Below, one piece after another: positions 17,125 to 63,108 of a DNA stretch of 64,000 nucleotides. Numbering within the stretch: position 1 is the stretch's first letter; every line of letters starts with the position of its first letter. Both the position numbers and the translations under genes were made by a program. Below the pieces are notes generated by a model. That model saw only the letters and a program-made list of their open reading frames with translations. It made no database searches and had not been told where the DNA came from. The DNA is from a virus: the IMG/VR virus record IMGVR_UViG_3300031603_000002, positions 1-64,000 of that record; one strand, written 5' to 3'.

Positions 17125-17510
17125 CACCACGAGATTTTGCATACTGGCTACAAGGCTTCTTTGAGGTTGCCGACACAGACGATGTCAAGCCTGAACAGAT
17201 AAGAATGATAAAGGAACATCTATCATTGGTGCTTACAAAAGTAACGCCGACGATGGAGGAACTCAAAGAAGAACCCAAGGTTGATTATCCGCCATTTAGG
17301 ATTTCACAGGATCCGTTTGAGGGCAACCGCTTGATTTGCTCTGCAGTCGCCGACGTAAAATCGACAACAGGACTTCCCACGGAATGGGTTGCTGCATTTC
17401 CATGGGTGAAGACAGATTCTGGCGGAAATGTGGTGAGCAACATGCAACCCTCTTCGCCAATCGGGAAATACGCCGTCGACACAGGAATAAAATGTCAACT
17501 AACATGCTAA
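17121..17510 (+). CDS. Hypothetical phage protein (MTPRDFAYWLQGFFE N-terminus)
   Basis: ATGA overlap with upstream gene; motif familiar from phage ORFs. Confidence 0.6.
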   Translation: MTPRDFAYWLQGFFEVADTDDVKPEQIRMIKEHLSLVLTKVTPTMEELKEEPKVDYPPFRISQDPFEGNRLICSAVADVKSTTGLPTEWVAAFPWVKTDSGGNVVSNMQPSSPIGKYAVDTGIKCQLTC

Positions 17511-18181
17511 ATGAAGATAACAAGGATGATGTTACGGTGACGCAAGAGGTGTTAAGTAAGAAACATCAGCACCTAATCAGCAAATGGAGCCGCACGCAAA
17601 TCCTGGATAATTTGTCCCAGGAAAAAGCCCTCAATTACGCAATCCTTTTTGAGAACCAATCGAATCTTATTATGGGACAGGTTGCTGACATGCACTCGAG
17701 GCATCGATCCTGCCCACGCTGGTGGACACAGGAAGCGTTTGATTTGGCACAACAGAATGTTTTCCAATTGATTAGACGAGTTTTTGACGGTGTCGATTTT
17801 GAATGGAAAGCAATGGAGACTCCGTATAATGAAGCTGCCGGTTGCGCCGAGACATCAAAACTAAGGACGAGGTTCTCTGTGTACGATTATGAACTCGCGG
17901 TGGCAAACGAAAAATTCAGTCGTATGGACGGTCACTTGATTTGGTTTATAAACATGGCTGATCAGTTCGTCGAAGAATTCAATCACATTGTACTTCAGGA
18001 TAAAACGACGCTCGCGACCTATAAGAACTACGACGGCCCAGTAATAAGGCATATTCATACACCATTTCAGGCCGGAAGCATTTCTTATTCGGATTTCTTC
18101 CCACCGGAAAAACGAAACAAAATCTACGGCACCATGTGGCGAGGAATCACAGCTCCTGCAAAAAAAGTTGAGCTCGTGTAA
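17492..18181 (+). CDS. Truncated, diverged MCP paralogue (N-arm/P-domain core)
   Basis: LISKWSRTQIL, FQLIRRVFDG, AETSKLRTRFS, GTMWRG align in order to MCP motifs. Confidence 0.75.
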   Translation: MSTNMLNEDNKDDVTVTQEVLSKKHQHLISKWSRTQILDNLSQEKALNYAILFENQSNLIMGQVADMHSRHRSCPRWWTQEAFDLAQQNVFQLIRRVFDGVDFEWKAMETPYNEAAGCAETSKLRTRFSVYDYELAVANEKFSRMDGHLIWFINMADQFVEEFNHIVLQDKTTLATYKNYDGPVIRHIHTPFQAGSISYSDFFPPEKRNKIYGTMWRGITAPAKKVELV

Positions 18182-18330
18182 GTTTCGTGCTGGTATGATA
18201 AAATATACTCATAAAGCACCCGTCATGATATTTATGATCACGGCAGGTTGGTCACGCGACAATATCTTGTGCTCTGCTTAGGTAACCTACCAACGACGTG
18301 TTTAGAGCGTACAGAAGAGGACACAGGTAC

Positions 18331-18813
18331 ATGAAAATCACAAAAAGAAGCCTAGCGAGGCTTGTTACAGAAGCCAAACGCTTAAATGAAACATCTGATG
18401 GTTCAGAATACCGATATTGGATGTCATCAAAGGTTTGGGGGCTCGATACACTAAAAGAACTTCCAAGTCGACAGGCATCACGAGCCCGCGAAACATTTCC
18501 GGAATATTCCGCGTGGGATCTTTATGATAATGAGAATATACCCGACGATCTTGTAACAAATTTCACAGGCCGGCAACCTTTACCGAGTGTATTCATTATT
18601 TCCGGGAGGAACATTGATATTCTTGTTGACACATCAGGATTTGATTACGCTCGATATTCAGCGAAGATTGGTGATGGCTCCCTGGCAGATGACGATGTGA
18701 CTGATTCAGATGAATATATAACAGGTCGTGAAGATGCCCAGTATGGCGAGCCCCGCGATACATATGCAGGCCCGAGATACCAGTTAGCGTACGACACGTA
18801 CGAGGGCAAATAA
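18331..18813 (+). CDS. MKIT-leader protein
   Basis: MKITKRSLARLVTEAKRLNE; ATATTTA at 18228. Confidence 0.7.
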   Translation: MKITKRSLARLVTEAKRLNETSDGSEYRYWMSSKVWGLDTLKELPSRQASRARETFPEYSAWDLYDNENIPDDLVTNFTGRQPLPSVFIISGRNIDILVDTSGFDYARYSAKIGDGSLADDDVTDSDEYITGREDAQYGEPRDTYAGPRYQLAYDTYEGK

Positions 18814-19784
18814 TGAAACGACGTTATCCGAAACTTGTCGATATTCTTTTTGAGGATGTGACTGATGATATTGCCAAGGCGGCCAAAGGTGGCCCTGGTG
18901 CTGTTCGTTCATTCGTAGACAATTATCCGGATCCTGATGAGCTGAAGGCAGCCCTTGCTGGCACCCATGATAATGTCAAAACTGACGACACGACGAACGT
19001 ATCAGAACCTACAATGAGAAAAATCAGTGATTTCAAGCCAACCCAGAAAGAAATCGATATGATGAAGTCTGCGGCGTTCCCATTGGGAAGTGCAAAGGCT
19101 CTTGCGAAAGCAATTACATCGAACACGACAGATGCACCCGGCTCAATTACAGTCTCAGGCGATGATGTGATCGATGGGCATCACAGATGGTCAGGTGTTT
19201 GGGCAATTAGCGGACAAAGTGGTATGATCGGCGCTGAGGATTTGGATCTCCCCGGAGATACAACTCAGAAACTCGCCGCCGCGCAACTTGCCATCGCAGC
19301 GCATAAGGACGTAAACCAGGACATGCCAACAGCATCTGGCAAGATCGAAAATAACATTCTAGGCAAATCATCAGGCGAAATTGAAAAGATGATGGTGGCA
19401 AACATAGGCCGCCAGGTAGATCGAAGGGCCCCTGGGCCAATGTTAAATGACGAAATGGTTGCAAACTCATCGAAGGATAAGGTTATTGCCAAGTGGGCTG
19501 GATTCAAGCTCGGTGCTGATGCCAATGAAATAAAGGCAAAAATTATCAAGAAGATTTCGGCGAACCTGGCAACTGTGCCAGGTAACCCAAAGGCACCAGC
19601 CCGAGAGGATATGCCTCAACTAGACCACAAATCGATTGGTGGGAAGGCTGCAAAAGCTGCAATTTATGACAAATTGCAAAACGCTGAAATCAATATCAAA
19701 AACCCGCTGAGCCCGCAGAAAGAATCCGCAGAGCAGGATGGAAACCTATTGACAGAGCGCTGGTGCCGATTGGCTAGCTGCTAA
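18813..19784 (+). CDS. ParB/Srx-like domain protein
   Basis: FKPTQKEI...VIDGHHRW; N-terminal LVDILFE; C-terminal ERWCRLAS. Confidence 0.6.
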   Translation: MKRRYPKLVDILFEDVTDDIAKAAKGGPGAVRSFVDNYPDPDELKAALAGTHDNVKTDDTTNVSEPTMRKISDFKPTQKEIDMMKSAAFPLGSAKALAKAITSNTTDAPGSITVSGDDVIDGHHRWSGVWAISGQSGMIGAEDLDLPGDTTQKLAAAQLAIAAHKDVNQDMPTASGKIENNILGKSSGEIEKMMVANIGRQVDRRAPGPMLNDEMVANSSKDKVIAKWAGFKLGADANEIKAKIIKKISANLATVPGNPKAPAREDMPQLDHKSIGGKAAKAAIYDKLQNAEINIKNPLSPQKESAEQDGNLLTERWCRLASC

Positions 19785-20149
19785 GATATATATTTCTGGA
19801 CCTTTTTATATCGATAGCATTTACTCGGATCAGGGACCGGCGAGTTCCTGGCGTTAAATGTAGCACTTGGCATCCTATTTTTATACACGACGTAAAAATC
19901 GTCATCCTTTGCCATCTCAACAAGCTCATCAAGTGACAACATTCCATCTGTGTGCGATGAAACACTGACTGCGATTGCCTGAAGCGGAGCGTCCTCGGCA
20001 TCGTAAAAAACGAGGCATGACGGCAGCATTGATTGCATGACATTCGGTGTTATCATAGTTGTTTTGCCTAGATACATTTCCATATCAACATAAACAGGTT
20101 CTCCTTTGTAGTTCGGAAGTTCAGCCGGCGTGATTATTTTGTATTTCAT
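19781..20149 (-). CDS. Hypothetical protein
   Basis: Likely start MKYKIITP with GAGG RBS; divergent from 20205. Confidence 0.5.
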   Translation of the reverse strand: MKYKIITPAELPNYKGEPVYVDMEMYLGKTTMITPNVMQSMLPSCLVFYDAEDAPLQAIAVSVSSHTDGMLSLDELVEMAKDDDFYVVYKNRMPSATFNARNSPVPDPSKCYRYKKVQKYIS

Positions 20150-20204
20150 GGTTTTATTTCCTCTTGAATCATAGTATAATATTTTCATACAGAGGTAAAA
20201 GAAA

Positions 20205-20711
20205 ATGATAAAACCATATCCAGCTCCAGAACCCACAGTCATGAGGAAAATTCTTGATGGGAACCGACCGGCTGATTATGTCACATATTGGCATCGAATG
20301 CCGGGAAGGTATGTTTTGAAAGAGACAGGCGAGGATTGCGGAGATGAGGAAACACGCCCGCTATTTTATGGCACGGTGACAGAGTGGTATTCGCTTTTAG
20401 GCGAGGCAGTCTACGATGCTTGGTCGAAAATAACAGATAAGGGCCTTACAGGGATGACGTCAGGAATCATCGTGTCCAAGGATATTCAAACAGTCCTTGA
20501 GACAACGCATTGGTACCGCGGAATATATCATTACTGTAGTTGTTGCACAGCCAAAACTGAGTGGCCAGTGATTGGAGTGATTGACGGGATCCCCGTCTAC
20601 GCCAGCGATGAAGTAGGAAAAAAGGTCGTTGTGTTCATGACGGGTTGCGAGAAGTGTGATCTTGAAGCCATCGCCGAGGTAAGAATTAAGGGAATGAGTA
20701 GGATCAGCTAA
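20205..20711 (+). CDS. Stand-alone paralogue of the MCP C-terminal (A-domain) region
   Basis: YWHRMPGRYVLKETG / FYGTVTEWYSLL / IIVSKDIQTVLE versus MCP YWSRSPGKFLNKQTG / FTGTVREWYETL / IVVGPDVATIFE. Confidence 0.8.
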   Translation: MIKPYPAPEPTVMRKILDGNRPADYVTYWHRMPGRYVLKETGEDCGDEETRPLFYGTVTEWYSLLGEAVYDAWSKITDKGLTGMTSGIIVSKDIQTVLETTHWYRGIYHYCSCCTAKTEWPVIGVIDGIPVYASDEVGKKVVVFMTGCEKCDLEAIAEVRIKGMSRIS

Positions 20712-21427
20712 GAGTCGGCGGCAATCGAGCGACCAAATAGCTGACGCAACGTTTTCCACGCAGGCAATTCCATTTGGCTGATGAACTGGTGATTAGTTTT
20801 TATCGCAGTGTCAACGATTGAAAAACGATGTTTTCTGTCACGTAATGATAACATGTTGATCCCTAGCAAAGAGTGTTCAGGGTTTTCGTGAGCTGATTTT
20901 GCAGCGCCCGACATACGGCGCAGCTCCACATCAAGCTTCATTCCAGGAAATTTGTTTAACCTTCTTCTGAAATCATCTTGTTCCCTTCTTTCCCATGCAG
21001 AACCGTCGCTGTACCAGGCGTCTCTATCGAGTTCATCAACCGACATTGATTTGCCCAGAAATTTGAGTTCACCATTCTGTTTGATTTTCTCCCACACATC
21101 GTTTTTGATAAGAACCTCAGTCCCCCAATCATATCGATGTAATCCACCGCTGGCTGAAATTGCCCACTCAGGTACCTGGTATGCATAGACGTTCCCACGA
21201 ATGCCATGATTGGCACGAATACCACGTGGGTTCGTTGACATAAAGATTCCGCCGTCTTCGTTCTTCGGCAGCCAATCCCGATCCCACCCTTTCCCACGCC
21301 TCTCAGGACGAGGCTGCACAGGTCGCTTGTCAATACGATAAAGCGTTCGACTGTTTTTTCTCGCGCCCCGTATCTCTTTGAGGATCGCCCTAACGAATGT
21401 TTCAAGTTGAAGATTATCGTGCGTCAT
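20708..21427 (-). CDS. Putative ADP-ribosyltransferase-fold protein with leader-like N-terminus
   Basis: LETFVRAILKE; TLYR, IFMSTNP, TEVLI (R-S-E pattern); ATATTTA on - strand at 21433-21439. Confidence 0.5.
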   Translation of the reverse strand: MTHDNLQLETFVRAILKEIRGARKNSRTLYRIDKRPVQPRPERRGKGWDRDWLPKNEDGGIFMSTNPRGIRANHGIRGNVYAYQVPEWAISASGGLHRYDWGTEVLIKNDVWEKIKQNGELKFLGKSMSVDELDRDAWYSDGSAWERREQDDFRRRLNKFPGMKLDVELRRMSGAAKSAHENPEHSLLGINMLSLRDRKHRFSIVDTAIKTNHQFISQMELPAWKTLRQLFGRSIAADS

Positions 21428-22208: not shown

Positions 22209-22209
22209 T

Positions 22210-25782: not shown

Positions 25783-28700
25783 ATGGCTGAGCAAACATTT
25801 CGATCTCCTGGATTTTTCGACCAGGAAATAGACCTATCGGGTCAGCAGGTTGCGCCCTCTGGCGTGCCAGCCGGTGTTGTCGGCACATCTGAGAAGGGAC
25901 CGGCATTCGTTCCGGTCACTGTCGGATCATTCGCTGATTTCGAAACAAAATTTGGGACACTCAACGCAAAACGTTTTGGCCCATACGCTGTTAAGCAATG
26001 GCTTGACAACAGGAACGCACTCACGTACGTAAGATTACTCGGCGCCGGTGCAAATGAGACTGCAACTGATATTTCAAACACCCGAGGGTCAGGAATTGTC
26101 AAGAACGCAGGATTCAGAATCACAGGTAGCGATTCTTTGAACACGGAACTACCGGGTAGCCAAGGGCTTGTCCAGTTTATTGTGGCTCGCCATGATGCGG
26201 TGGCAAACGATGAAACAAACGGCTACCCGATGTTTACTGATAACAGTAGCATCAACAACGCATCATCTATGAATCTCGTTCGTGGAGCAGTTTTGCTCGC
26301 GACGGGCACACGAATGATGGCGTTAGACAACACCGGTACGTATGCAGATCAATCTGCCGCCGGATACAACTCCGCAGTGGTCGGTTCGGTACCATCGAGC
26401 CCACTAACACAAAACAAGTACTTCAAGCTTGTTCTTAGTTCGTCATCTGGAAAAGATTGGTCATATGACGAAGGTTATGATGGCATCAAAATCCTTACGG
26501 CATCACTTGACCCGCACGATGCGAACTACATTGGCAAGATTTTGAACACCGACCCGCTGAAATTTCAAGAGGAGGAGCACCTGCTTTACCTCGATTTTGC
26601 AGTTGAGCATGCACTCGCTCCTGTGATTTCATCTGTTGTACCAACAGTCGCGCTGGTATCAGGTTCTGAAAATAAGAGCACCTCAGCAGGAACCCCTATC
26701 GGGTTTATGCAATTGTACGGGCGGTATGACACACGATACCAGACGCCACGCACAACGAATTTCATCTCGCAGCCATACGGTGATGCGGAGTACGATTTGT
26801 TCAGTTTCGAAACGATTGATGATGGTGTTTACGCCAATGAGAAATTCAAGGTTTCAATCGCTGGTCTTCGTGCGAGCACAAACGAAAAACAGCCACACGG
26901 TCTGTTTGAAGTGCAAATCAGGTCATTCGAGGACAGCGATGGTAATTCGGCAATACTTGAAAGGTACCCGAATTGCTCACTCGATCCCAACTCTGATCGA
27001 TATGTGGCTCGCCTAGTCGGCGATAAAAAGGTTCGATTTGATTGGGACCAGGAATCACCAGATGAGCGTCGCCTCGTTGTGACAGGAAAGTACCCGAACG
27101 TTTCACAGCGTGTTCGAATCGTAATGAACGAGCAAGTTGAACTTGAAAAGGTTCCAAAGACTTCGCTGCCATTCGGTTTCAGGGGGCTTCCTGTTATCAA
27201 GACAACTGACACATTGACAGACGATGCCACGGCACTTCTCGGTCTCAATGGTGAGGTTATTGGTGGTGCAGAAAGGCGCCGCCTCGGTGTTTACCACACG
27301 TCTGGTACATCGGTAATGGCAACCACAGGTTCTATTGTTCCACCACTTCCTTTCCGAGTGAAAGTAACGAAGGGTGCAGTTCAAGGTGTGAGCCCAACAT
27401 TCCTAGGCGATCCAGGTAGCACAGAACGTGTTGATGGTCGATTATACTGGGGTGTGAAGACTGATCCGTTGCCTGTTTCGTCAAGTAACGATTCAACACT
27501 CGGCATCGCTGATGCGGTCCTTCGCTCAAACGAGGGTGCAGGAATCAATCCACTCGTCAGAACATACACGAAGTTCCAAGGCATCACGAAGATGGACAGT
27601 TTGGTCACAGGATCCGGCGCCGACTTCTTTAATGACAACAAATTCACGTTGGCACGAGTTGCTCTATATAATGCTGCAACTCAGCTTTCTGATGTGACAA
27701 CCCAGGTCACCGGTACAGCACGAGAGCACATGCTCCAGGCTGCATACGTAAGAAATGGTCGTCCGAACCCATCCACATACACCGTCACAGACGGCGCAAG
27801 GACAGGAAGAATCACAATGGCGTCGCTGATTGCAACATCATCAGCGCTGTTCAATCGTTTCACTGAGTATCACAAGTTCACTAACGTGTTCTACGGCGGA
27901 TTTGACGGAACAAATATTCTCGACGAAGACCAAGGATACTTCAGGGATAAAGCGTTGTCGTCTGACACCGGTGGTAAAGCCCAGAAATCTCCAGTCGCTT
28001 CTGATCGAATCGGTCTTGCATTGATTGGAACAGACAACCAGGCTGGTGGAGGTCGACTAAACAACAACGTTGCGTCGATTCGAACAGCCGTTGACATCAT
28101 CACGAACCCTGTTTCATCACGAATCAACCTTTTGGCAATTCCTGGTGTCCGTGAGCCATTCGTAACGGATCATGCATCTGACGCTGTAAAGTCATACGGT
28201 CTTGCGCTGTATGTTATGGATGCAGTGGAATTCGATAAGAATTCGAACCGATTGTACGACGATTCTGAAGCTAACTCTGATGTCACCAAGACAATCGACC
28301 AGTTTGAAACACGTGCAATTGATAACAACTACGTCGCGACATACTTCCCAGATGTTACAATCGAAGATAACGTGAACAACCGCGTCGTCCAGGTTCCGCC
28401 GTCTGTTGCTGCAATGGGTGCGCTAGGTTTCAACGACCGTGTCCAACAGGTTTGGTTTGCTCCGGCAGGCTTCAACCGTGGAGCGCTAGGCTTCGTGAAG
28501 AATGTAGAGAATAGGTTGTCGGCAAAGGATAGGGATTCCCTGTACGATGCGAAAATCAACCCAATCGCAACATTCCCGCGAGCTGGCTATGTAATCTTTG
28601 GACAGAAAACACTGCAGGTTGCACAAACGGCACTGAACAGAATCAACACAAGAAGGATGTTGATTGACGTAAAACGAAGGATTCGTTCCATCGCTCAAGG

Positions 28701-28950
28701 TTTGGCATTCGAACAGAATGACGCGACGACTCGAAAGAAGTTCTCCGCTGACTCAATTCGTGAGCTAACATACGTGCAGGCAAGACAGGGAATCGAAGCA
28801 TTCCAGGTTACTTGTGATGAAAGCAATAATACAACTGCGGAGATTAACCAGAACAAGCTTCGTGGTCAAATCAAAGTGAAGCCCACCCGAGCGATTGAGT
28901 TCATCTCGGTTGACTTCATTATTACAAACAATGGCGTAAGTTTTGAATAA
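25783..28950 (+). CDS. Tail sheath protein 1
   Basis: SPGFFDQEIDLS, KGPAFVP, WFAPAGFNRG, INPIATFP, GQKTLQ. Confidence 0.93.
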   Translation: MAEQTFRSPGFFDQEIDLSGQQVAPSGVPAGVVGTSEKGPAFVPVTVGSFADFETKFGTLNAKRFGPYAVKQWLDNRNALTYVRLLGAGANETATDISNTRGSGIVKNAGFRITGSDSLNTELPGSQGLVQFIVARHDAVANDETNGYPMFTDNSSINNASSMNLVRGAVLLATGTRMMALDNTGTYADQSAAGYNSAVVGSVPSSPLTQNKYFKLVLSSSSGKDWSYDEGYDGIKILTASLDPHDANYIGKILNTDPLKFQEEEHLLYLDFAVEHALAPVISSVVPTVALVSGSENKSTSAGTPIGFMQLYGRYDTRYQTPRTTNFISQPYGDAEYDLFSFETIDDGVYANEKFKVSIAGLRASTNEKQPHGLFEVQIRSFEDSDGNSAILERYPNCSLDPNSDRYVARLVGDKKVRFDWDQESPDERRLVVTGKYPNVSQRVRIVMNEQVELEKVPKTSLPFGFRGLPVIKTTDTLTDDATALLGLNGEVIGGAERRRLGVYHTSGTSVMATTGSIVPPLPFRVKVTKGAVQGVSPTFLGDPGSTERVDGRLYWGVKTDPLPVSSSNDSTLGIADAVLRSNEGAGINPLVRTYTKFQGITKMDSLVTGSGADFFNDNKFTLARVALYNAATQLSDVTTQVTGTAREHMLQAAYVRNGRPNPSTYTVTDGARTGRITMASLIATSSALFNRFTEYHKFTNVFYGGFDGTNILDEDQGYFRDKALSSDTGGKAQKSPVASDRIGLALIGTDNQAGGGRLNNNVASIRTAVDIITNPVSSRINLLAIPGVREPFVTDHASDAVKSYGLALYVMDAVEFDKNSNRLYDDSEANSDVTKTIDQFETRAIDNNYVATYFPDVTIEDNVNNRVVQVPPSVAAMGALGFNDRVQQVWFAPAGFNRGALGFVKNVENRLSAKDRDSLYDAKINPIATFPRAGYVIFGQKTLQVAQTALNRINTRRMLIDVKRRIRSIAQGLAFEQNDATTRKKFSADSIRELTYVQARQGIEAFQVTCDESNNTTAEINQNKLRGQIKVKPTRAIEFISVDFIITNNGVSFE

Positions 28951-28976: not shown

Positions 28977-31900
28977 ATGGCAGAATTCACTTTTCCAGTT
29001 AGTCCGGGTGTAGTGGCGAATGAAATTGACCTTTCAGGACCCACGCAGGTTTCTCCCTCTGGAATTCCTGCAGGTGTTGTAGGAACATCAGTAAGAGGGC
29101 CTGCATTCGTTCCAGTAACTATGGCAACATTTCAAGACTTTATTTCAACATTTGGAAATAGCGACGGCACAAAATTCGGACCGATCGCCATGCGTGAATG
29201 GCTGAGAAATGCCGGTTCAGGTGTGTTTGTTCGTGTCCTTGGCGCCGGTGACGGTTCTGCAAGGCTCTCGACAGGTAACAATCAGGGTAGGGTAACCAAC
29301 GCAGGATTTGTTGTTGGCGAGCGTCTTGTTCAGCCAAACGGTTTAGTTGGTAACAACTCTAAGACCGGCGCTGAGAACTTGCCAGGCGGTGCGCTCGGGC
29401 GTTCATACATGCTGGCAGCTATTATGTCTGAGTCAAACGGTTCAACATACCTTAGCGACGCCGGCATCCAGAAGAACGTCAATGCAACCCCGGTTCTTCG
29501 TGGTATGCTAATGGCGCCTTCTGGTGTTATCCCAGCATTGAGTCACTCACTTGATCCTGCTGGTAACATGGCACCAGCAGCAAACGAAGCATCATACCCA
29601 ACATTCGGTGCAGCCGGAGTTGGCAACGCTGGAGGAAATATTGGTAGCGTTGATGTTAGTAACTCGAAGCAGGAGTTCGTTCTCCTGTTTAACGGTCACA
29701 AAAACAATGCAACATACAAGAATGTTGTTACGGCATCATTCGACCCAAGCGTCCCGAATTATTTTGTGAACGTGCTCAACACGGACCCACTGAAAATCGA
29801 AGATGCTGGACATTATCTATACACGCATTACGACATCGATCCAGCTCTCGCAGTTGCAACCGGTACAAACGTGATCAACCCAACAGTCTGGTTCACAAAC
29901 CATGAGCCCGTTGCTTTACTTTTAACTTCGACCCTAAATCGGGACGTAGGTTCTGCGACATCAGCAACGACCGTCGGCGTACCCAACTTCGAGAACTTCG
30001 AGGATAGGTTTGAGGCAGCATTCAGTCCATTTGTTGTATCACAGAAATTCGGTGGTGCAAACAAGGACTTGTTCAGGTTAACGACATTGTCTGACGGTAT
30101 CATCGGGGCCGGCGAAGTCAAGGTTACAATTGAAAACATCGCGGCTTCATCGAAGGCAAACAACAAGTACGGCACTTTCGATGTGCTGATTCGACGTTTC
30201 ACAGACAACGATTTGAACCCAGCAATCCTGGAATCATTCAGGGGCTTGAGTCTTGATCTATCGTCTGACAACTACGTTGCAAAACGAATCGGTGACCAGC
30301 GAACATACTTCGACTTCGAAGCTGCGACAGGAAATCAAAAGATTGTTGTTGAAGGTGATTACCCAAGCGTTTCAAACTACGTTAGAGTGACACTGAGCAG
30401 CGACTTGAAGAATGACCGATTGGACCCAACGGCGTTGCCAACAGGATTCCGCGGCCTCCATCACTTGGTGACATCTGGCACAACAATCGCAGGAACAGCA
30501 GGCTCAATCCTAACAGGAAGCTTTGCGACATTGCGAGGTTCGGTATCCGCCAGCATTTCATCTGATGTGCTCAAGCGGGTTGTCCAGCCTCCTGTCCCAA
30601 TGCGTGAGTCGATCTCTACAGGCGCATCCCCAAAGAAAAATGTTCAGCAGTCATTCACGTGGGGAATCCAATTCGAAACGAAAACAAGCGTTTCACTTCC
30701 TAACAAGAATGAAAAACTGGATGCATCATTGCTATCTTTCACGAGGTACTTCCCGAAATTCCACACAAGCTGGCAGAACCCACTAGTCGGTGATAATGCT
30801 GGAGCGGCGGACGTGGGCGGAACGATTTTCGATGCTGACCGTTTCAACAATAACTTCTTCTCTCTTGAGAGGGTACAGGTTATTACTGGATCGAACGACA
30901 GACCAGACCCACAACAGTGGGCAGCAGCTTCGTATCGTCGAAACGGAACGCAGGCTTCGGTATTGGATGACCGTGATGGAACCTCGAAGACCAACGTTCG
31001 ATTCTTGGATTCGACAAAGGACTTTGCACACATTCCAAGCCAGAAATACTTGAAGTTCACATTCCCGCTTCAGGGTGGATATGACGGAACCAATGTATTT
31101 GACTCTGCAAAATCAAAGTTCACCGATACAGCGGTTCGCCGTGAAATGGATGACGCAACCTTACAGGGCGGAAAGAACGGACCAACCGTTGCTGCATTGC
31201 GAAAGGCAGTCGACGTGATGGAAGCAAAACAGGACGTCGACATTCAGTTGCTGGCGATCCCTGGCTTGCGCCACTCATCTATAACTGACTACGCGATTGA
31301 ATCAGTCGAACGACGATTTGATGCGTTGTATGTAATGGATATCGAGGAAAAGGATGAAGTCAATACATTTGTAACATCATCTGCTCAGGTAATCAGTGTG
31401 ACGAATACTGTCAACACTTTCCAGTCGAGAGCTTTGGATTCATCGTTTGCGGCGGCATACTTCCCAGACGTGGTGATTCAGGACGTTGCAACCAAGACGA
31501 ACGTGAAAGCACCGTCTTCGGCTGTTGTTCTTGGTGCAATGGCATTGAATGACGCAATTGGTCATCCTTGGTTCGCACCTGCAGGCTTCTCACGAGGTGC
31601 TTTGCAGAGCGCACTGTACCCAACAGTTGAGCTCCTGCAATCAAATCGAGATGCACTTTACAGTGCTGACGTTAACCCAATCATTGGCGATGTGCAGGCA
31701 AATTCTGGAGTAACCGTATTCGGCCAGAAAACATTGCTTGCAGCACAAAGTGCACTCGACCGTGTGAACGTCCGACGTTTGCTAATCGACATTCGTAGAA
31801 AGGTCCGAGATGTGGCACGAACATTCTTGTTTGAGCCAAACCAGGCATCCACGATCGCATCGTTTGAAGCGAGGGTGCAGCCAATCTTGGCAGCTGTCCA

Positions 31901-32060
31901 GTCACAAGGTGGACTGGATAGGTTTAAGGTTAAGATTGACGCATCTACCACAACACAGGCTGACATCGAGAACAACACCATCCGTGGCAAAATCTTCTTG
32001 CAGCCAACAAAATCAATCGAGTTCGTCTCGCTTGACTTCGTGGTAAGCAACAACATATAG
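28977..32060 (+). CDS. Tail sheath protein 2
   Basis: SPGVVANEIDLS, RGPAFVP, WFAPAGFSRG, LDRVNVRRLL. Confidence 0.93.
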   Translation: MAEFTFPVSPGVVANEIDLSGPTQVSPSGIPAGVVGTSVRGPAFVPVTMATFQDFISTFGNSDGTKFGPIAMREWLRNAGSGVFVRVLGAGDGSARLSTGNNQGRVTNAGFVVGERLVQPNGLVGNNSKTGAENLPGGALGRSYMLAAIMSESNGSTYLSDAGIQKNVNATPVLRGMLMAPSGVIPALSHSLDPAGNMAPAANEASYPTFGAAGVGNAGGNIGSVDVSNSKQEFVLLFNGHKNNATYKNVVTASFDPSVPNYFVNVLNTDPLKIEDAGHYLYTHYDIDPALAVATGTNVINPTVWFTNHEPVALLLTSTLNRDVGSATSATTVGVPNFENFEDRFEAAFSPFVVSQKFGGANKDLFRLTTLSDGIIGAGEVKVTIENIAASSKANNKYGTFDVLIRRFTDNDLNPAILESFRGLSLDLSSDNYVAKRIGDQRTYFDFEAATGNQKIVVEGDYPSVSNYVRVTLSSDLKNDRLDPTALPTGFRGLHHLVTSGTTIAGTAGSILTGSFATLRGSVSASISSDVLKRVVQPPVPMRESISTGASPKKNVQQSFTWGIQFETKTSVSLPNKNEKLDASLLSFTRYFPKFHTSWQNPLVGDNAGAADVGGTIFDADRFNNNFFSLERVQVITGSNDRPDPQQWAAASYRRNGTQASVLDDRDGTSKTNVRFLDSTKDFAHIPSQKYLKFTFPLQGGYDGTNVFDSAKSKFTDTAVRREMDDATLQGGKNGPTVAALRKAVDVMEAKQDVDIQLLAIPGLRHSSITDYAIESVERRFDALYVMDIEEKDEVNTFVTSSAQVISVTNTVNTFQSRALDSSFAAAYFPDVVIQDVATKTNVKAPSSAVVLGAMALNDAIGHPWFAPAGFSRGALQSALYPTVELLQSNRDALYSADVNPIIGDVQANSGVTVFGQKTLLAAQSALDRVNVRRLLIDIRRKVRDVARTFLFEPNQASTIASFEARVQPILAAVQSQGGLDRFKVKIDASTTTQADIENNTIRGKIFLQPTKSIEFVSLDFVVSNNI

Positions 32061-58730: not shown

Positions 58731-58911
58731 AGAAGTACGAAAAGAGCTCGAGCACATCATGGGCAAAATATCCATAAAAGACCAGCTTCTTGCGTGGCAC
58801 AGAAAAACCCATGATGACTATGAAGGGTTCGACAATTACAACGATTACATCAAGTACGGTGGAATGTTTGTGCCAGTCGAACCACCGAAAAAACAGGAGG
58901 AAACGAAATGA
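58720..58911 (+). CDS. Small hypothetical protein
   Basis: Probable start MNDKEVRK. Confidence 0.5.
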   Translation: MNDKEVRKELEHIMGKISIKDQLLAWHRKTHDDYEGFDNYNDYIKYGGMFVPVEPPKKQEETK

Positions 58912-59459
58912 ACACAGAAGAAGAAAATGAAGCCCTTAGGGTTGAAGAAGCGCGACTAGTCAAAGAGCTCAAAGAGTTTTCAGACTTGGCCGCAGCAGAA
59001 GAGGCGAAAGATAGGGCGGCGTTTGAATCAGGCGATGAGAAGTATAAACTGATCGCAGCATGCGAATATGGCGAGCATTGCCTGGAGATTGTTCCGCCTC
59101 CAAGAACGTCACGCCTTGTATACCTGACAGAAAAAGAGTCTGATGAAGCGATAAAATCAGGTAAGATCTCAGCGTGTACTACGCCAGACGGTAAGTACAT
59201 CGATGCAACTGTAGACGATGACCTGGAAAAGTTTCAACAATTGGTTGATGAACTCTTTGGGCATGTATATTCAATGGGCCGTAACCTTGGAATGGGTAAC
59301 CGTGATCGTAAACTTGAGGCTCACGAACTTATGGCCGCTCTTGACGGCACACGTAACCTAGGTCGCGATCTTGCGGATGACATCATGGAAAAACGCGGAG
59401 ATTTCAGCGAGTTGTGCAGTCGGATTTTAGGTTGGGGTTGGTTTGAAGCCGGAAAGTAA
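58908..59459 (+). CDS. Hypothetical protein
   Basis: GGAGG RBS, ATGA overlap. Confidence 0.6.
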   Translation: MNTEEENEALRVEEARLVKELKEFSDLAAAEEAKDRAAFESGDEKYKLIAACEYGEHCLEIVPPPRTSRLVYLTEKESDEAIKSGKISACTTPDGKYIDATVDDDLEKFQQLVDELFGHVYSMGRNLGMGNRDRKLEAHELMAALDGTRNLGRDLADDIMEKRGDFSELCSRILGWGWFEAGK

Positions 59460-59488
59460 ATGAACACCTGACGCTCATCCCATATAAT
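59460..59488 (+). promoter_or_regulatory. Sigma70-like promoter for the distal small-ORF operon
   Basis: ATGAAC-17 bp-TATAAT. Confidence 0.5.
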
Positions 59489-59508
59489 GTAAGCAAGAAA
59501 GGGGTGCT

Positions 59509-59721
59509 ATGGTTGCCAGGTATACAACGAAATTTGTGTATATTGTGATGTATACGACATTCACGAAGGATGGATTTCCTGAAACGAAAATCCTCCGCGT
59601 TTGCAAGAATGAAGACGCAGCAATCCGCTTTAGTAAGAAGTGTCAATGGGGTGTACCTGAACACGCCGCGAATTACTCCGTAGACACGCACATGGTATAT
59701 GATGAAACGTATGATGAATAA
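59509..59721 (+). CDS. Small hypothetical protein
   Basis: AAGGGG RBS. Confidence 0.55.
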   Translation: MVARYTTKFVYIVMYTTFTKDGFPETKILRVCKNEDAAIRFSKKCQWGVPEHAANYSVDTHMVYDETYDE

Positions 59722-59747
59722 GCGCCGAGTCTACGAAATAGACATCA

Positions 59748-59942
59748 ATGAAATCCCCAGCCGCTACGACATATTATCATACATGGAAGGTGTGTCCCCA
59801 TGCAATGCGCTTGGTGAAAGAAGCCGATGAAGCAGAGCAAAATAAAGAATACGAAGATGCATGCGACCGACTAGATGAACTTTCAAGAAACAGAGGCTGG
59901 AATGATCCAACCGCAAACACACCGGATTACAATGGCGAATAA
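59748..59942 (+). CDS. Small hypothetical protein
   Basis: Fills the gap before dam; start uncertain. Confidence 0.45.
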   Translation: MKSPAATTYYHTWKVCPHAMRLVKEADEAEQNKEYEDACDRLDELSRNRGWNDPTANTPDYNGE

Positions 59943-60789
59943 GACAATTTTCAAATATGCTGGTAATAAAGCCAAAGTTATGGCCAAGATTTCCCCGTAT
60001 TTCAAGTGGGATGGTGTGACGGCATACTTCGAACCCTTCTGTGGGACATTAGGCTCAGCACTCAACGTCGAAATCCCGGAAGAGGTCACGAATGTGATGC
60101 TCTCAGACGAGAACTGGGAAGTTATCAATGTCCATAAAATGTTCATCAGGCAACCCGGGCTCCTCGAAGAAAAAGTGAACGCCCTTCCGTTTGGCGAAGA
60201 TGCATACTACGAAATCCGGAACAAGGATCGTGAAGAGGTCCACTTCGAGGAAAGAACGAAAGACATCGACCAGGCAGCCAGAACACTTTATCTGAACAAG
60301 AATTGTTTCAATGGCCTGATGCGATACAACCCGAAGAAAGGGTATTTCAATGTTCCATGGAACCATGCCAAAAAGAAAGCCGTTGTCAACCTGACCGGTA
60401 AAGACATGCAATATGCCCGCGATTTCTTGGCATCAGAACGTGTTTGTGTTAAGTGGTTGGGTTTTGAGCAGCATTTCGATGGGTTCGGGAAGGGCGATTT
60501 GGTCTATTGTGACCCGCCGTATATCAGCATCAAAAACCCAAAGCAAGAGTTCGTTGGCTTTGTTGGCAACTTTGATAGGGATAAACAATCTGACCTTGCA
60601 AAGGCGGGAGTTGATGCCCACAAACGTGGCGCTAAGGTTTATATCTCAAATTCTGACTGTCCGGCATCACGCGGCCTTTATGCTTTTTACGGGTATAGGA
60701 TTGTTGAGGTAAAAAATGTCCAAAGAAGCTTGTCGTCCAAGGGCACATCGCGTAAGAAAGTCGGTGAAATCCTCGCAATATTGGACTAA
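59932..60789 (+). CDS. dam: DNA adenine methyltransferase (Dam/D12 family)
   Basis: KYAGNK, YFEPFCG, LYLNKNCFNGLMRYN, VYCDPPY, ISNS. Confidence 0.88.
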   Translation: MANKTIFKYAGNKAKVMAKISPYFKWDGVTAYFEPFCGTLGSALNVEIPEEVTNVMLSDENWEVINVHKMFIRQPGLLEEKVNALPFGEDAYYEIRNKDREEVHFEERTKDIDQAARTLYLNKNCFNGLMRYNPKKGYFNVPWNHAKKKAVVNLTGKDMQYARDFLASERVCVKWLGFEQHFDGFGKGDLVYCDPPYISIKNPKQEFVGFVGNFDRDKQSDLAKAGVDAHKRGAKVYISNSDCPASRGLYAFYGYRIVEVKNVQRSLSSKGTSRKKVGEILAILD

Positions 60790-60792
60790 ACA

Positions 60793-61260
60793 ATGACTAA
60801 CGAAGAAAGATTTGCCAAAGCAAGGGCTCGAATTGGCCCGTCAACTCATCCGGCCCCTCCTAAAGTTTTGCCTCAAATCGGTGAGCCCACCGAGAACATC
60901 AAGTCAGACGACAAAGTGTTGATACGTCCATTTCCATGGAAACTGAAAGCAGATTGGAGTGGAGGCAGGTATGGTTTCAGGCATCAACCATGCCATTATA
61001 TTTGGCTTAAGGGAACTGTTGTCGACCACGAGTCATTTCCAATCTCCAACGGAGTGTTTGTTCAATTCGACAAGAACCAAAACGAATTTGCCGTTGCTGA
61101 AGACTACGAACGCTGGAATAACTGCCCACTGTTTTTCACATGGGAGCAGGTTTCAAAAGGGATCAAGCATTTGTATACACAACATGGGTTCAAGCAAGGT
61201 GATGTTGTAAGACGTAAAAACGCGGATGAAACTGAAATCAAGGAGAAAAGCGAATGCTAG
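60793..61260 (+). CDS. Hypothetical protein
   Basis: 155-aa ORF, operon packing. Confidence 0.55.
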   Translation: MTNEERFAKARARIGPSTHPAPPKVLPQIGEPTENIKSDDKVLIRPFPWKLKADWSGGRYGFRHQPCHYIWLKGTVVDHESFPISNGVFVQFDKNQNEFAVAEDYERWNNCPLFFTWEQVSKGIKHLYTQHGFKQGDVVRRKNADETEIKEKSEC

Positions 61261-61466
61261 GACCACCTGTTTGCGATAAATGCGAACTGATTATGCAACC
61301 AACGACTGATCAGACATCCCCTGATATTCATCATTATGTCTGCCCAAAATGCACGACCCAAAACTGTCACACGTTCAGCAATCGACCAATACTAACACGT
61401 CAAAACTATCGTAAGATTGTGGCTGACACGTTCCACTTTCTGGAGAAGCATGCTGAAGGAAAATGA
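61254..61466 (+). CDS. Small zinc-ribbon protein
   Basis: CDKC...CPKC; AAGGAG RBS. Confidence 0.6.
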   Translation: MLGPPVCDKCELIMQPTTDQTSPDIHHYVCPKCTTQNCHTFSNRPILTRQNYRKIVADTFHFLEKHAEGK

Positions 61467-61782
61467 GTGCCTCGAGGAAGATGAGTTCAAAACCGGAGAT
61501 TTGATTTGGACGATAGGAATCAATTCACCGTATATGCAGTATACATCGTTTTCGGCCTTACTCATTGATGCTGAAAACAAAATATTACTTTTCGAGTGCA
61601 AGAAAAAGAAATGGAAAAACCGATTCTACAAAACAGAACAGGAAGCAAAAGACGCGGTCGATGCTAAGCGTCGGAGTATGTATATGAGTGCCAAAGACAT
61701 ATGTTCTGTTCAGCCTATGACATTACCCAAGAGTGAAATATTTCACCTCCCATATGAATACAAATACAACGAGGATGACTAA
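61450..61782 (+). CDS. Small protein ending in an MCP-derived (Gol-region) peptide
   Basis: AKDICSVQPMTLPKSEIFHLPYEY versus MCP ANDLVSIQPMSLPSGLLFYMDYTY. Confidence 0.7.
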   Translation: MLKENECLEEDEFKTGDLIWTIGINSPYMQYTSFSALLIDAENKILLFECKKKKWKNRFYKTEQEAKDAVDAKRRSMYMSAKDICSVQPMTLPKSEIFHLPYEYKYNEDD

Positions 61783-62074
61783 AGTGCAAAAGTTCTATAC
61801 GGTATGGGAAAACACGAATCCTGATGAACTCGAAGACAGCATTATGTCTATCATTTCATATAAAACGCAGACTGAAGTTGCCCAACTGCGAAAACAATCG
61901 CCGAGAGCGGTCAGCAACAGGCATTGTGAAGCCGATTGGTATTTCAGGCCAGTCGCACCAGATGATGAAACAATCGCCGAAATGTTCGGGGATAATTGGA
62001 AATATGAAACAGCTGCCGGCTTTAAGACCGACGAGGCTTTCACAGAGTGGAATAGGGGAAAAGAATGTTTGTAA
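61775..62074 (+). CDS. Hypothetical protein
   Basis: Probable start MTKVQK. Confidence 0.5.
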   Translation: MTKVQKFYTVWENTNPDELEDSIMSIISYKTQTEVAQLRKQSPRAVSNRHCEADWYFRPVAPDDETIAEMFGDNWKYETAAGFKTDEAFTEWNRGKECL

Positions 62075-62688
62075 AGAAGGTAGTGAGTAACTTGTTGAAG
62101 TCTGAAGCTGCGCTCAAGAACGAGCCAGTGATTGTGTACGTCAACAAGTTTAATGAGGAAGCAGCTAAGAAGTTCTCCGAGGACATGGCAAAAGCCCAGG
62201 GAACCGGTCAACCTGTTATTCCTATCGTTATTGATAGTTATGGTGGCGCTGTATATTCGCTGATGTCCATGGTGTCAGCAATCAAAGCATCAGAAGTTCC
62301 GGTCGCTACAATTGTACTTGGAAAAGCAATGTCGTGTGGTACTGTTTTAGCTTCATGTGGTGCTGAAGGCATGCGATTTTGTTCGCCTGACGCAACATAT
62401 TTGATTCATGATGTTTCGTCATGGGCTGTCGGCAAGGTTGAAGAAATGAAAGTCAGCACCAAAGAATCCGACCGACTAGACAAGAAGTTGTACACCCTGA
62501 TGGCACGTAACTGTGGGCAGAAGGACAATTACTTCAAAAAGCTCAGTCGTAAGAAGAAGGGCGCCGACTGGTTCTTCACACCAAAAGAAGCAAAGAAGCA
62601 CAATATGGCAAACCATATCTGCATTCCAAAAATGACAGTCAGCGTCGATGTCAACTTCAAGTTTCACAACTGCGATGAGGGTGAATAA
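62065..62688 (+). CDS. clpP: ClpP-like serine protease
   Basis: IDSYGGAV, GKAMSCG (catalytic Ser), YLIHD, DWFFTPKEA. Confidence 0.85.
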   Translation: MFVKKVVSNLLKSEAALKNEPVIVYVNKFNEEAAKKFSEDMAKAQGTGQPVIPIVIDSYGGAVYSLMSMVSAIKASEVPVATIVLGKAMSCGTVLASCGAEGMRFCSPDATYLIHDVSSWAVGKVEEMKVSTKESDRLDKKLYTLMARNCGQKDNYFKKLSRKKKGADWFFTPKEAKKHNMANHICIPKMTVSVDVNFKFHNCDEGE

Positions 62689-62691
62689 GTC

Positions 62692-63108
62692 ATGGATATC
62701 CCCGGGTTTGAAATTAAGGTAAACGTTCCGCCAAAGCCTCGAAAGCTAAGAACGAAATGGGCCAGCGAACCAATCACGGACACACCCGAGGGGCTATCAG
62801 AAACTCTGAAAAAAGATACTATAAGAGATATAATATCTCAACAGATAGCTGACGAAATTGATGCTGAGATTGCAGCTGATTTCGCTGAAAAACTTGGTAC
62901 ACTCCACGTGCGATTTGAGGTCGTCCCGAGAAAGGGTATGATGGTGAATTACTGCCATCCTATGAACGAAGAGAAGATGCCAGGATTGATTCTGCGCGAA
63001 TGGGATCCAAACGTCAAGAACTCTGGACAAATCCTGCTTGGTGGTGGAACCAAATTCGCTTTCGCAAGTGATGACAACGCTGAGCAATGGTTCGAGGAAG
63101 TTAAATGA
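62692..63108 (+). CDS. Fusion of MCP spine-helix fragment and small beta-barrel domain
   Basis: RKLRTKW...IISQQIADEIDAEI versus MCP RKLRARW...ILSEQIAMELDREI. Confidence 0.7.
   Translation: MDIPGFEIKVNVPPKPRKLRTKWASEPITDTPEGLSETLKKDTIRDIISQQIADEIDAEIAADFAEKLGTLHVRFEVVPRKGMMVNYCHPMNEEKMPGLILREWDPNVKNSGQILLGGGTKFAFASDDNAEQWFEEVK

Follow-up and report, generated by a model that had tools for sequence, protein, structure and literature searches.

The 64,000-nucleotide stretch of DNA analysed here (the window) comes from an uncultured T4-like jumbo phage, IMGVR_UViG_3300031603_000002 (G000), and holds a gene for a major capsid protein (MCP) together with scattered small genes that resemble parts of it (Table 1). 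The resident MCP, P0001, matches the Pfam family Gp23 (PF07068, HK97 fold; 1.5e-77) and the T4 gp23 structures (E ~5e-30) and is, judged by sequence, the template that every fragment resembles. The fragment genes, each a different conserved piece of the MCP, are small and intact, and number five in this phage and seven in G001, a 318-kb, 93%-complete relative with ~84% nucleotide identity.

Table 1. Positions of the capsid protein gene, the MCP-like fragments and neighbouring features.
Feature	Position	Strand	Description
Resident MCP (P0001)	12303-14189	+	628 aa, T4 gp23 type, with a ~240-aa insertion domain
P0002	17492-18181	+	229 aa; MCP-like start (MST.N)
TATAAT hexamer	20175-20180	+	25 nt before P0003; consensus match only
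P0003	20205-20711	+	168 aa; Cys-rich insert (CSCC...CxxC)
P0004	61450-61782	+	110 aa; lineage-specific N-terminal carrier domain and MCP-like C-terminal tail
Small ORF	61733-62074	+	113 aa, no known family; between P0004 and the ClpP-like gene
ClpP-family serine protease gene	62065-62688	+	directly before P0005, in the same tightly packed operon
P0005	62692-63108	+	138 aa; MCP-like, then an unrelated ~45-aa C-terminal part
P0006	contig 75543-75866		fifth fragment, just outside the window

The initial annotation had proposed that four intact ORFs of the window resemble parts of the MCP, and BLASTP against the MCP agrees for P0002 (E 4e-8 over MCP 18-95, with MCP 382-436 also matched, weakly, at E 0.03), P0003 (E 7e-16 over MCP 442-522), P0004 (E 2e-6 over MCP 97-120) and P0005 (E 1e-7 over MCP 369-478). 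All four frames are intact, and a plausible Shine-Dalgarno sequence precedes each. The profile comparison with gp23 that the annotation had named as a check gives the same answer, with hhalign scores against the MCP of 97.5% (E 7e-12) for the P0002 family and 94.6% (E 6.7e-8) for the P0005 family; against Pfam Gp23, P0004 reaches 25.7 bits (cut-off 24.4; aa 67-107 on profile positions 6-47), and P0005, at 17.9 bits, stays under the cut-off. The four are real; the set as first drawn was too small, the fifth fragment lying beyond the window. When an HMM built from 77 clade MCPs was run over all 3,984 ORFs of 35 aa or more from both phages, it returned the two MCPs and the five plus seven fragment ORFs and nothing else (E 3e-16 for P0003, 7e-8 for P0006, 2e-6 for P0002, 4e-4 for P0005 and 8e-3 for P0004), and three rounds with shuffled ORFs gave no match at E <= 0.01.

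Which parts of the capsid protein are represented? The fragments cover MCP 16-110 (P0002), 427-575 (P0003), 97-120 (P0004), 369-440 plus short pieces (P0005) and 565-591 (P0006), on a map anchored to T4 by A455 of the P-domain sheet, equivalent to MCP P584, and by the spine helix 292-307, equivalent to MCP 414-429 (PMC9546572). The retained segments are those that do not vary among the clade MCPs, and the variable insertion domain is never kept. Identity to the MCP by BLASTP is 27-46%, the P0006 tail excepted, and no nucleotide-level similarity was found between the fragment genes and the MCP gene. Every clade MCP stands at an equal distance from the fragments, which do not follow the MCP of their own phage; P0003, for example, is 44% identical to the MCP of clade member L017 and 34% identical to the resident one. 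We considered the fragments as capsid subunits and rejected this, as no ORF has a complete HK97 protomer (N-arm, E-loop/insertion linkers, P domain and A domain); they are homologous to MCP parts, but not capsid subunits. P0002, P0003 (by sequence alignment) and P0005 are collinear deletion derivatives of an MCP. In G001, where paralogue families amount to 71 pairs, no large structural protein other than the MCP has several small partial paralogues. The fragments form a family that is specific to this lineage and maintained by selection, its members being built from sub-domains of the resident gp23-type MCP.

Two of the fragments lie near the head genes. P0002, 3 kb downstream of the MCP gene, aligns through residues 18-111 (nt 17543-17824) with the MCP propeptide and N-arm; further collinear matches to the spine helix and C-terminal strands are only suggestive, and the protein may be propeptide and N-arm, possibly with P-domain elements. 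Its orthologue in G001 is 75% identical (dN/dS 0.11), and a second P0002 paralogue sits there at 303567-304097. P0003 would correspond to the MCP A domain (MCP ~427-575 and the last strand) and is predicted to keep the counterpart of the T4 gp24-bypass interface helix (T4 anchors from gp23 structures; PMC9546572). Its orthologues are 85% (G001; dN/dS 0.09) and 89% (L112; dN/dS 0.07) identical, and a paralogue, P0003b, present in G001 and L113, has a dN of 0.27 vs 0.02-0.04 in flanking genes.

The remaining fragments are surrounded by DNA methyltransferase, ligase-like and nucleotide-metabolism genes and not by head genes. In P0004, the tail (aa 67-107, nt 61648-61770) resembles the MCP N-arm and pre-insertion strand and bears a 'DIC.VQPM' block, which corresponds to the Gol peptide of T4, and the orthologue in G001 is 72% identical (dN/dS 0.10). 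P0005 matches the MCP post-insertion strand and P-domain spine helix (residues 3-73, nt 62698-62910, on MCP 369-440) and then makes short collinear matches to MCP ~540-552 and ~597-607; its G001 orthologue is 68% identical (dN/dS 0.09), and residues 74-92 are 100% conserved between both phages. The fusion of two fragments to unrelated small domains, as initially described, is located in the N-terminal ~66 aa of P0004 and the C-terminal ~45 aa of P0005. Between these two genes, the small ORF is fast-evolving (55% identity, dN/dS 0.40), and the product of the next gene matches Pfam CLP_protease (PF00574) at 1.5e-25 and 90.6 bits (cut-off 20.2) over profile positions 11-179 of 182; it scores below the NCBIfam ClpP equivalog cut-offs and is therefore a divergent ClpP member, in which Ser (AMSCG), His (LIHD) and Asp (GADWF) stand in plausible contexts as read by eye. 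A separate T4-type prohead protease gene lies at 7427-8050 (phrog_207). The order P0004, small ORF, ClpP-like gene, P0005 is kept in G001 and L109, also where G001 was assembled independently from a second sample. Outside the window, P0006 shares the N-terminal carrier domain of P0004 (BLASTP 2e-6), a domain that forms only two clusters among 1.84 billion representative proteins, and the two proteins are one carrier with a different MCP beta-strand peptide grafted C-terminally. Four members of the P0006 family, with N-domains 41-61% identical, have the tail G..VYAPYVPL..TP.L.V without variation; this MCP-like peptide is the most conserved part of the family and is 61-69% identical to the MCP.

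All five fragments have syntenic intact orthologues in G001, which carries the two additional paralogues as well. Four of them have dN/dS values of 0.09-0.11 and the fifth 0.40 (the values near 0.1 being measured at dS ~1 or more), against a genome median of 0.075, so these genes are not decaying; neutral decay, a check named at the outset, is contradicted by this purifying selection. The fragments evolve faster than neighbouring genes, with orthologues 36-85% identical vs a genome median of 89%. Their distribution is narrow. Among 80 clade loci, P0002 and P0003 have orthologues in the closest relative only, and a second full-length MCP in tandem occurs in 2. The MCP stands alone, with no fragments found, in five partial genomes with MCPs 65-68% identical, an absence whose weight is limited by the 38-76% completeness of the more distant relatives' genomes. 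L112, whose MCP is 95.6% identical, is without the P0002 cassette, and its MCP-proximal region is shorter. The fragment set thus occurs only in a narrow sub-lineage of a diverse clade that comprises >600 MCP loci from the same kinds of samples.

When might the fragments be expressed? The late-type motif ATA[CT]TTA is real: 8 and 7 copies stand a short way ahead of genes where ~0.4 would be expected in each case, and the MCP gene has its own copy, ATACTTA at 12276. A motif scan bears out the earlier remark that no such motif directly precedes any fragment; P0002 and P0003 lie downstream of copies at 15787 and 18228. The argument for early expression from TATAAT-type promoters fares worse: sigma-70-type matches show no enrichment over shuffles (11 vs 14.1 and 10 vs 10.3), which leaves that argument without statistical support, and P0002 follows a late-type motif. 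Among the individual matches, the TATAAT before P0003 would sit in a divergent intergenic region of ~55 nt if the minus-strand neighbour starts at 20149, and a 10-of-12 promoter-type match lies at 59461-59488. With P0002 and P0003 in the head-gene neighbourhood and after late-type motifs, late co-expression with the MCP is possible.

Several explanations for the fragments can be weighed. That they are non-functional debris of MCP duplications, homing-endonuclease activity or assembly artefacts is very improbable: endonuclease-like genes do adjoin the MCP gene and sit inside the portal ORF, and the MCP-proximal region is an indel hotspot, but the selection analysis already contradicts this reading, as do the frames, intact in two to three diverged phages, the agreement of independent assemblies, the missing nucleotide-level similarity to the MCP gene and the ribosome-binding site at each ORF. 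They might instead be folding units exapted from partial MCP duplications, with a present function unrelated to MCP mimicry, for example as adaptors or substrates of the adjacent ClpP-like protease. The low identity to the MCP outside the P0006 tail, the non-MCP parts in each protein, the ClpP-family gene between P0004 and P0005 in 3/3 assemblies and the general richness of jumbo phages in paralogue families would suit such a history, as would the C-terminal position of the grafted peptides, protease and PDZ-type recognition often being at C-termini. Yet it would be a strange coincidence for exactly the invariant MCP blocks to have been retained independently five to seven times, with nothing similar for any other structural protein, and in the P0006 family it is the MCP-like peptide that is most constrained, and we consider exaptation unlikely. 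Less likely again is that dominant-negative MCP pieces cap or mis-pair with the subunits of co-infecting related phages and so poison their head assembly. The accessory distribution, the fast evolution, the size and diversity of the clade and a likeness to other clade MCPs that equals or exceeds the likeness to the resident one all lean that way, but the copied segments are invariant clade-wide, the resident MCP included, and therefore the poison would strike its producer as well unless its timing, or something else, gave protection.

A stronger, though still rather doubtful, competitor is a role in head assembly or maturation, in which the MCP-like elements dock accessories onto MCP, scaffold, prohead protease or portal; possible roles are those of assembly-timing regulators, helpers for chaperonin-dependent folding of the P domain, and minor head or vertex components. 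P0002 retains the MCP N-terminus and propeptide, in T4 the part that contacts the scaffolding core, and is sited just past the MCP gene after a late-type motif. Three pieces complement each other on the MCP map without overlapping: the P0004 tail supplies the pre-insertion strand, P0005 the post-insertion strand, the spine helix and a strand of the hairpin, and the P0006 tail the second hairpin strand. Jointly they make up one HK97 P domain, so that fold complementation is possible and they could act as a split P domain. P0004 and P0005 share an operon, the T4 gp31-bypass mutations fall in exactly the P-domain elements copied here, and G001 offers no gp24-type second full-length MCP. On the other side, some or all fragments are missing in relatives with 65-96% identical MCPs, so that the fragments are not needed for building this capsid; P0004, P0005 and P0006 lie away from the head genes; and the fragments evolve much faster than structural genes and do not co-vary with their own MCP.

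We favour, tentatively, a role in host-phage conflict over one in head assembly, with the fragments acting as MCP mimics. Accessory distribution, fast evolution, copy-number expansion and the retention of invariant MCP blocks fit a conflict-type role, and in one family (P0006) constraint is strongest on the grafted peptide itself. The fragments would display the unvarying core and the interface elements of MCP that has not yet assembled, stripped of shell-building ability, and would vie with the MCP for whatever binds it in monomeric or nascent form. The likeliest of these binding factors would be host immune sensors that recognise the MCP (Avs7/8/10, Dsr1, CapRel-type or Lit/EF-Tu-type), toward which the fragments could serve as non-activating decoys or as caps masking the sensed interface of MCP monomers; the binding partners, expression time and protective effect are what we infer. 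For other Avs targets, conserved sub-segments are 'necessary and sufficient' as triggers, and by analogy an isolated MCP domain could activate a sensor instead of blocking it. Structure models of the fragments are poor (pLDDT 44 and 51) and leave MCP-domain-like folding unconfirmed. The capsid-mimic idea of the initial annotation is thus partly supported: the gp23 matches and the purifying selection, two of the three checks that might have refuted it, did not do so, and the conflict-like evolution fits it. Its reasoning from early expression has no such support, and its variant of poisoned competitors becomes less likely, since the segments kept in the fragments occur unchanged in the resident MCP. 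A more specific version, which we hold a shade more doubtful than mimicry as such, is a multi-epitope self-capsid mimic system directed against immune receptors for unassembled MCP or against EF-Tu/Lit-type surveillance, in which some pieces (P0004 tail, P0005 and P0006 tail) may form a P-domain-like particle.

How do the fragments compare with known systems? The T4 vertex protein gp24 likewise derives from duplication of the MCP gene in T4-type phage and is kept under selection, but it is a complete HK97-fold subunit that forms pentamers, whereas each fragment holds about a quarter of an MCP or less, has an incomplete fold and belongs to a dispersed set that is accessory in the clade; the gp24 type, a full-length MCP paralogue that usually adjoins gene 23, was considered for the fragments and rejected, neither G000 nor the 93%-complete G001 having a second full-length MCP. 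The T4 Gol peptide offers a closer parallel, as the P0004 tail appears to carry the equivalent block (RR...A.DIC.VQPM..P), with a match to the T4 block that is, by eye, no poorer than that to the resident MCP. In T4 this block is the most conserved region of gp23 and binds EF-Tu (PMC3014915). The T4 peptide, which engages domains II-III of EF-Tu and licenses cleavage by Lit, is, however, part of gp23 and activates host suicide, whereas P0004 would display its predicted equivalent C-terminally on a separate small protein.

Mimicry is an established means of counter-defence, as with the phage DNA mimics Ocr and Arn, the ICP1 antitoxin mimic Gp145 and the poxvirus pseudosubstrate K3L, and what we propose for the fragments is similar in kind: the viral protein resembles what a host factor normally binds and so occupies that factor. 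To our knowledge, the known phage mimics imitate DNA or host proteins; the fragments, in contrast, would copy a structural protein of the phage itself, each version representing a different sub-domain, with a function read from sequence. The small T4 proteins Srd and Srh, which resemble fragments of host sigma factors and are thought to be partial mimics, are like the fragments in being small phage ORFs with a recognisable piece of a much larger protein, and unlike them in copying host proteins and in forming no multi-member set that covers one fold. Our literature searches found no comparable gene set of capsid-protein pieces and, a November 2026 review of phage countermeasures included, no mimic of a phage's own structural protein; that review names many systems triggered by the MCP but no decoy of it (PMC13728456). 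If the proposal is true, this would be the first counter-defence that imitates a phage's own structural PAMP. MCP-sensing immunity (Avs7/8/10, Dsr1, CapRel SJ46, and the triggers of Thoeris and CBASS) belongs to the host and is no relative of the fragments, but it supplies the selection under which MCP mimics would pay off: Avs7, Avs8 and Avs10 bind monomeric MCP at the hexon-/penton-forming capsomer interface of its A domain (PMC13581612), and it is this A domain that P0003 appears to match.

Every one of the four open reading frames (ORFs) that the initial annotation had described as fragments of the gp23-type major capsid protein (MCP) resembles a different part of that protein, with a significant pairwise BLASTP match in each case (see the table), and tblastn of the whole contig with the MCP as query adds a fifth, P0006, whose C-terminal 27 residues share 67% identity with MCP 565–591. 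When a profile hidden Markov model (HMM) built from 77 MCPs of the clade was run against all 3,984 ORFs with a minimum length of 35 aa in this contig (G000) and its closest relative (G001), it matched the two MCPs, five ORFs in G000, seven in G001 and nothing else; shuffled ORF sets yielded no match at E <= 0.01. Profile–profile comparison with gp23-type MCP agrees: the P0002 family scores 97.5% (E 7e-12) and the P0005 family 94.6% (E 6.7e-8). When all G001 genes were compared with one another, no large structural protein other than the MCP had several small partial paralogues; the phenomenon is therefore MCP-specific and not a general fragmentation of the genome. The MCP gene and the fragments have no similarity at the nucleotide level, so the fragments are old and diverged, not recent conversion tracts; this rules out recent gene conversion as well as any use of the fragments as recombination cassettes. 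Searches of NCBIfam, PHROGs and Pfam returned nothing for the fragments except Gp23, a PDB profile search with the P0002 family returned nothing, tblastn of P0002, P0003, P0004 and P0006 found nothing in 50,697 phage records, and word-index protein searches with P0003 and with a P0004/P0006 alignment recovered close relatives only. An ESM Atlas search yielded no more than weak leads, to small SH3-like viral proteins. A weak match of P0004 to PHROG 12830, a 128-aa family annotated as 'major head protein', is a hint that sequenced phages contain free-standing pieces of the gp23 N-terminus; our literature search found no study of them.

The phage is a jumbo T4-like virus and G000 (a single contig of 96.6 kb, 46% G+C, the window being its first 64 kb) a fragment of the genome, because it is collinear, at ~84% nucleotide identity, with the 318-kb G001 contig, which is 93% complete. 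The window carries a T4-type head and tail module. Its MCP belongs to a clade of >600 IMG/VR loci (60–92% MCP identity among the best 80) that is without representatives among isolates, the nearest isolate MCPs being only ~48% identical. The insertion domain of the MCP, at ~240 residues (model region ~170–340), is much larger than that of T4. Residues ~130–285 of the portal ORF, ahead of the portal-domain match at 583–850, form an HNH-endonuclease-like segment; this segment may represent an intein or a homing endonuclease fused to the portal. Two genes of ~1,030–1,055 aa lie next to each other and represent a very large late gene duplicated in tandem, with 33% full-length identity between their G001 orthologues.

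Features of the capsid-fragment system and its surroundings (coordinates are those of G000 unless another contig is named; orthologue columns refer to G001)
Feature	Location	Strand	Pairwise BLASTP or other match	MCP part represented	Orthologue aa identity	Orthologue dN/dS
Large terminase	1906-3504
Portal ORF, 1,020 aa, HNH-like insert	3557-6619	+
T4-type prohead protease	7427-8050
Putative scaffold	10500-12251
MCP, gp23-type, 628 aa	12303-14189		Pfam Gp23 1.5e-77
P0002	17492-18181		E 4e-8, MCP 18-95	N-terminus (MST.N), propeptide, N-arm; MCP 16-110	75%	0.11
P0003	20205-20711		E 7e-16, MCP 442-522	Spine-helix end through A domain, including interface helix, and last strand; MCP ~427-575	85%	0.09
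P0004	61450-61782	+	E 2e-6, MCP 97-120	Tail: N-arm/'VQPM' block, T4 Gol region equivalent; MCP 97-120	72%	0.10
P0005	62692-63108	+	E 1e-7, MCP 369-478	Strand returning from insertion domain and spine helix; MCP 369-440	68%	0.09
P0006, 107 aa (outside window)	75543-75866 (= L001:11543-11866)	+		Tail: P-domain strand into P loop; MCP 565-591	36%	0.40
P0003b (P0003-type paralogue)	G001 (IMGVR_UViG_3300022902_000004) 209348-209836	+
P0002b (P0002-type paralogue)	G001 (IMGVR_UViG_3300022902_000004) 303567-304097	-
P0003b orthologue	L113:8837-9325		63% identity to P0003b
ClpP-family gene	62065-62688	+
Indel hotspot	14324-17510 (cf. L112:1047-1951)
ORF opposite P0003	19781-20242	-
Very large adjacent genes	25783-28950, 28977-32060	+
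ATA[CT]TTA sites (examples)	9009, 10476, 12276, 15787, 22560, 25736, 33311, 36827, 49869

That the fragments are intact but diverged is borne out by G001, which has syntenic intact orthologues of all five. Their Nei–Gojobori dN/dS values, set against a reference median of 0.075 over 101 gene pairs at dS ~1, exclude neutral decay, and with it non-functionality of the fragments. L109, in which the G001 phage was assembled independently from a different sample (99.98% identical), keeps the order P0004, orf, ClpP-like gene, P0005, and L112, a relative whose MCP is 95.6% identical, has a P0003 orthologue at 89% identity with a dN/dS of 0.07. A Shine–Dalgarno sequence is present at each fragment ORF.

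To locate the copied segments, we mapped the MCP onto T4 gp23 by HMMER alignment to PDB chains and cross-checked the map against residues named in PMC9546572: T4 H282, M284, D285 and D287 correspond to MCP 404–409, spine-helix residues 292, 306 and 307 to MCP 414–429, P-loop residues 457, 460 and 461 to MCP 588–592, and the A-domain interface helix with gp24-bypass sites 381 and 387 to MCP 508–518. None of the fragments copies the variable insertion domain; the copied blocks are those invariant across 36 clade MCPs. P0002 also aligns collinearly, but more weakly, with the spine helix and the C-terminal strands, matches that are individually non-significant, and its second MCP-like stretch (118–175) reaches an HMM i-E of only 120 and 0.2% against P0005 in hhalign. 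P0003 bears a Cys-rich insert. Beyond its main segment, P0005 has short collinear matches to MCP ~540–552 and 597–607 and ends in an unrelated ~45-residue tail; its residues 74–92 do not differ between the G000 and G001 phages. P0004 and P0006 share a small N-terminal carrier domain (BLASTP 2e-6). The earlier description of two fragments as fused to unrelated small domains thus fits P0004, through the carrier domain, and P0005, through its tail; the C-terminal part of P0005 is not detectably the same as the carrier domain (hhalign 0.2%), so that two SH3-like proteins have support rather than three. Across four P0006-family members, identity is only 41–61% in the N-domain, whereas the tail, G..VYAPYVPL..TP.L.V, is invariant, so the grafted peptide is the constrained part. 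The AlphaFold2 model of the MCP has a pLDDT of 51 overall, with confidence confined to the insertion domain (170–340, 75–89) and the HK97 core below 50, and a P0003 model with MCP rows in its alignment has a pLDDT of 44.

The distribution of the fragments is patchy. For example, among the best 80 of the >600 clade loci, orthologues of P0002 and P0003 within 10 kb of the MCP occur only in the closest relative, and in five partial genomes (MCPs 65–68% identical, 38–76% complete), searched with the full-length MCP in four of the five and with P0005 and P0006 family profiles in all, the only match was the MCP itself. An exhaustive HMMER search with the carrier-domain profile found 2 clusters among 1.84 billion representative proteins. 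The paralogues P0002b and P0003b lie in parts of G001 beyond the coverage of the G000 contig. Genes flanking P0003b are 93–97% identical (BLASTP) between G001 and L113, and P0003b itself has a dN of 0.27 as against 0.02–0.04 for these neighbours, i.e. it evolves ~10 times faster, at a dN/dS of 0.18. The fragments are equidistant from all 78 clade MCPs (27–44% identity), the resident MCP not being the nearest, and the idea that they track their own phage's MCP was rejected on these grounds.

P0002 and P0003 lie 3–6 kb past the MCP, sharing a variable region with an endonuclease-like gene and a ParB-like gene, and P0006 is surrounded by nucleotide-metabolism-type genes. Just downstream of the MCP is an indel hotspot with several small ORFs, a gene that matches the ParB C-terminal domain, and a TnsA/restriction-fold endonuclease-like gene for which identity between the two phages compared is only 49.5%; it is here that L112 lacks ~3.5 kb, P0002 included. 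The ATA[CT]TTA motif of the structural genes is, as noted initially, genuine: it is enriched ~20-fold in the 80 nt upstream of genes, stands 12–50 nt before the MCP and many further structural genes, and looks like a late promoter. It does not directly precede any fragment, but same-strand sites at 15787 and 18228 lie upstream of P0002 and P0003. The TATAAT-type promoters that had been placed ahead of the fragments fared less well, as sigma-70 matches are no commoner than in shuffles; a terminator scan likewise did no better than shuffles. A TATAAT at 20175–20180 nevertheless precedes P0003, in a short divergent intergenic region. The minus-strand ORF opposite P0003 more likely starts at 20149 (GAGGA, 9-nt spacer, ATG) than at 20242, which leaves a 55-nt divergent intergenic region common to P0003; opposite-strand genes flank both P0003 and P0003b. 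A second motif class, GTGTAAA-N~17-TATAAT, precedes four genes (64035, 68533, 76816 and 94808), all outside the window.

What, then, are the fragments for? The choice lies mainly between conflict-related mimicry and a role in assembly. We tentatively favour the former, in which the fragments would be mimics aimed at factors that bind unassembled MCP, acting as a decoy or an interface cap, because of their patchy accessory distribution, their copy-number expansion, their evolution at a far higher rate than structural genes or neighbours, the absence of co-variation with their own MCP, and the position of three of the five among non-structural genes. Extra, non-assembling copies would saturate or mask the ligand site of an MCP sensor. 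We consider it rather improbable that the fragments instead poison related phages, as the producer's MCP has the copied segments in identical form.

A part in head assembly, including a split P domain and an interaction of P0002 with the scaffold through its propeptide, is a serious rival, though it strikes us as somewhat unlikely. The HK97 P domain consists of a pre-E-loop/insertion strand, a post-insertion strand, the spine helix and a C-terminal hairpin. On the MCP map the P0004 tail, P0005 and the P0006 tail cover these elements without overlap, and the three could thus form one P-domain-like unit by fold complementation. Against an assembly role stands L112, which lacks a ~3.5-kb cassette holding P0002 despite its nearly identical MCP; P0002 is therefore dispensable for building the capsid. 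An exapted function other than mimicry seems unlikely to us; it might be tied to the ClpP-like protease, whose gene, extra to the prohead protease, is flanked by P0004 and P0005 in a tightly packed plus-strand operon downstream of a DNA methyltransferase. This ClpP-family gene is divergent, with apparent Ser/His/Asp residues.

Either way, the fragments offer a clean and testable example of a viral structural protein whose sub-domains were exapted. Few triggers of bacterial immunity are commoner than capsid proteins (Avs7/8/10, Dsr1, CapRel, Thoeris, CBASS and Lit). To our knowledge, the sole phage escape route described to date is mutation of the MCP, which is unavailable for invariant core elements; non-assembling copies of such elements suggest another, in which the sensor's ligand site is saturated or masked. 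Decoys, if confirmed, would constitute a new class of anti-defence proteins and ready-made probes of the MCP surfaces that are sensed. P-domain folding in T4 depends on gp31/GroEL. Should the fragments prove to act in assembly, they would show the HK97 fold taken apart by nature into modules that are stable independently and peptides that act as strand donors, and would inform P-domain folding and capsomer interfaces.

MCP paralogues of full length (gp24) are already known, as are anti-defence proteins that work by mimicry. The literature searched described no phage with a conserved set of several genes that copy sub-domains or grafted peptides of its own capsid protein, and a November 2026 review includes no MCP-mimic counter-measure (PMC13728456). 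An MCP-binding target for the mimics is plausible because of the literature on Gol, EF-Tu and MCP-triggered systems, CapRel, Thoeris and CBASS among them. No part of gp23 is more conserved than the T4 Gol block, which binds EF-Tu (PMC3014915); the tail of P0004 copies the equivalent block.
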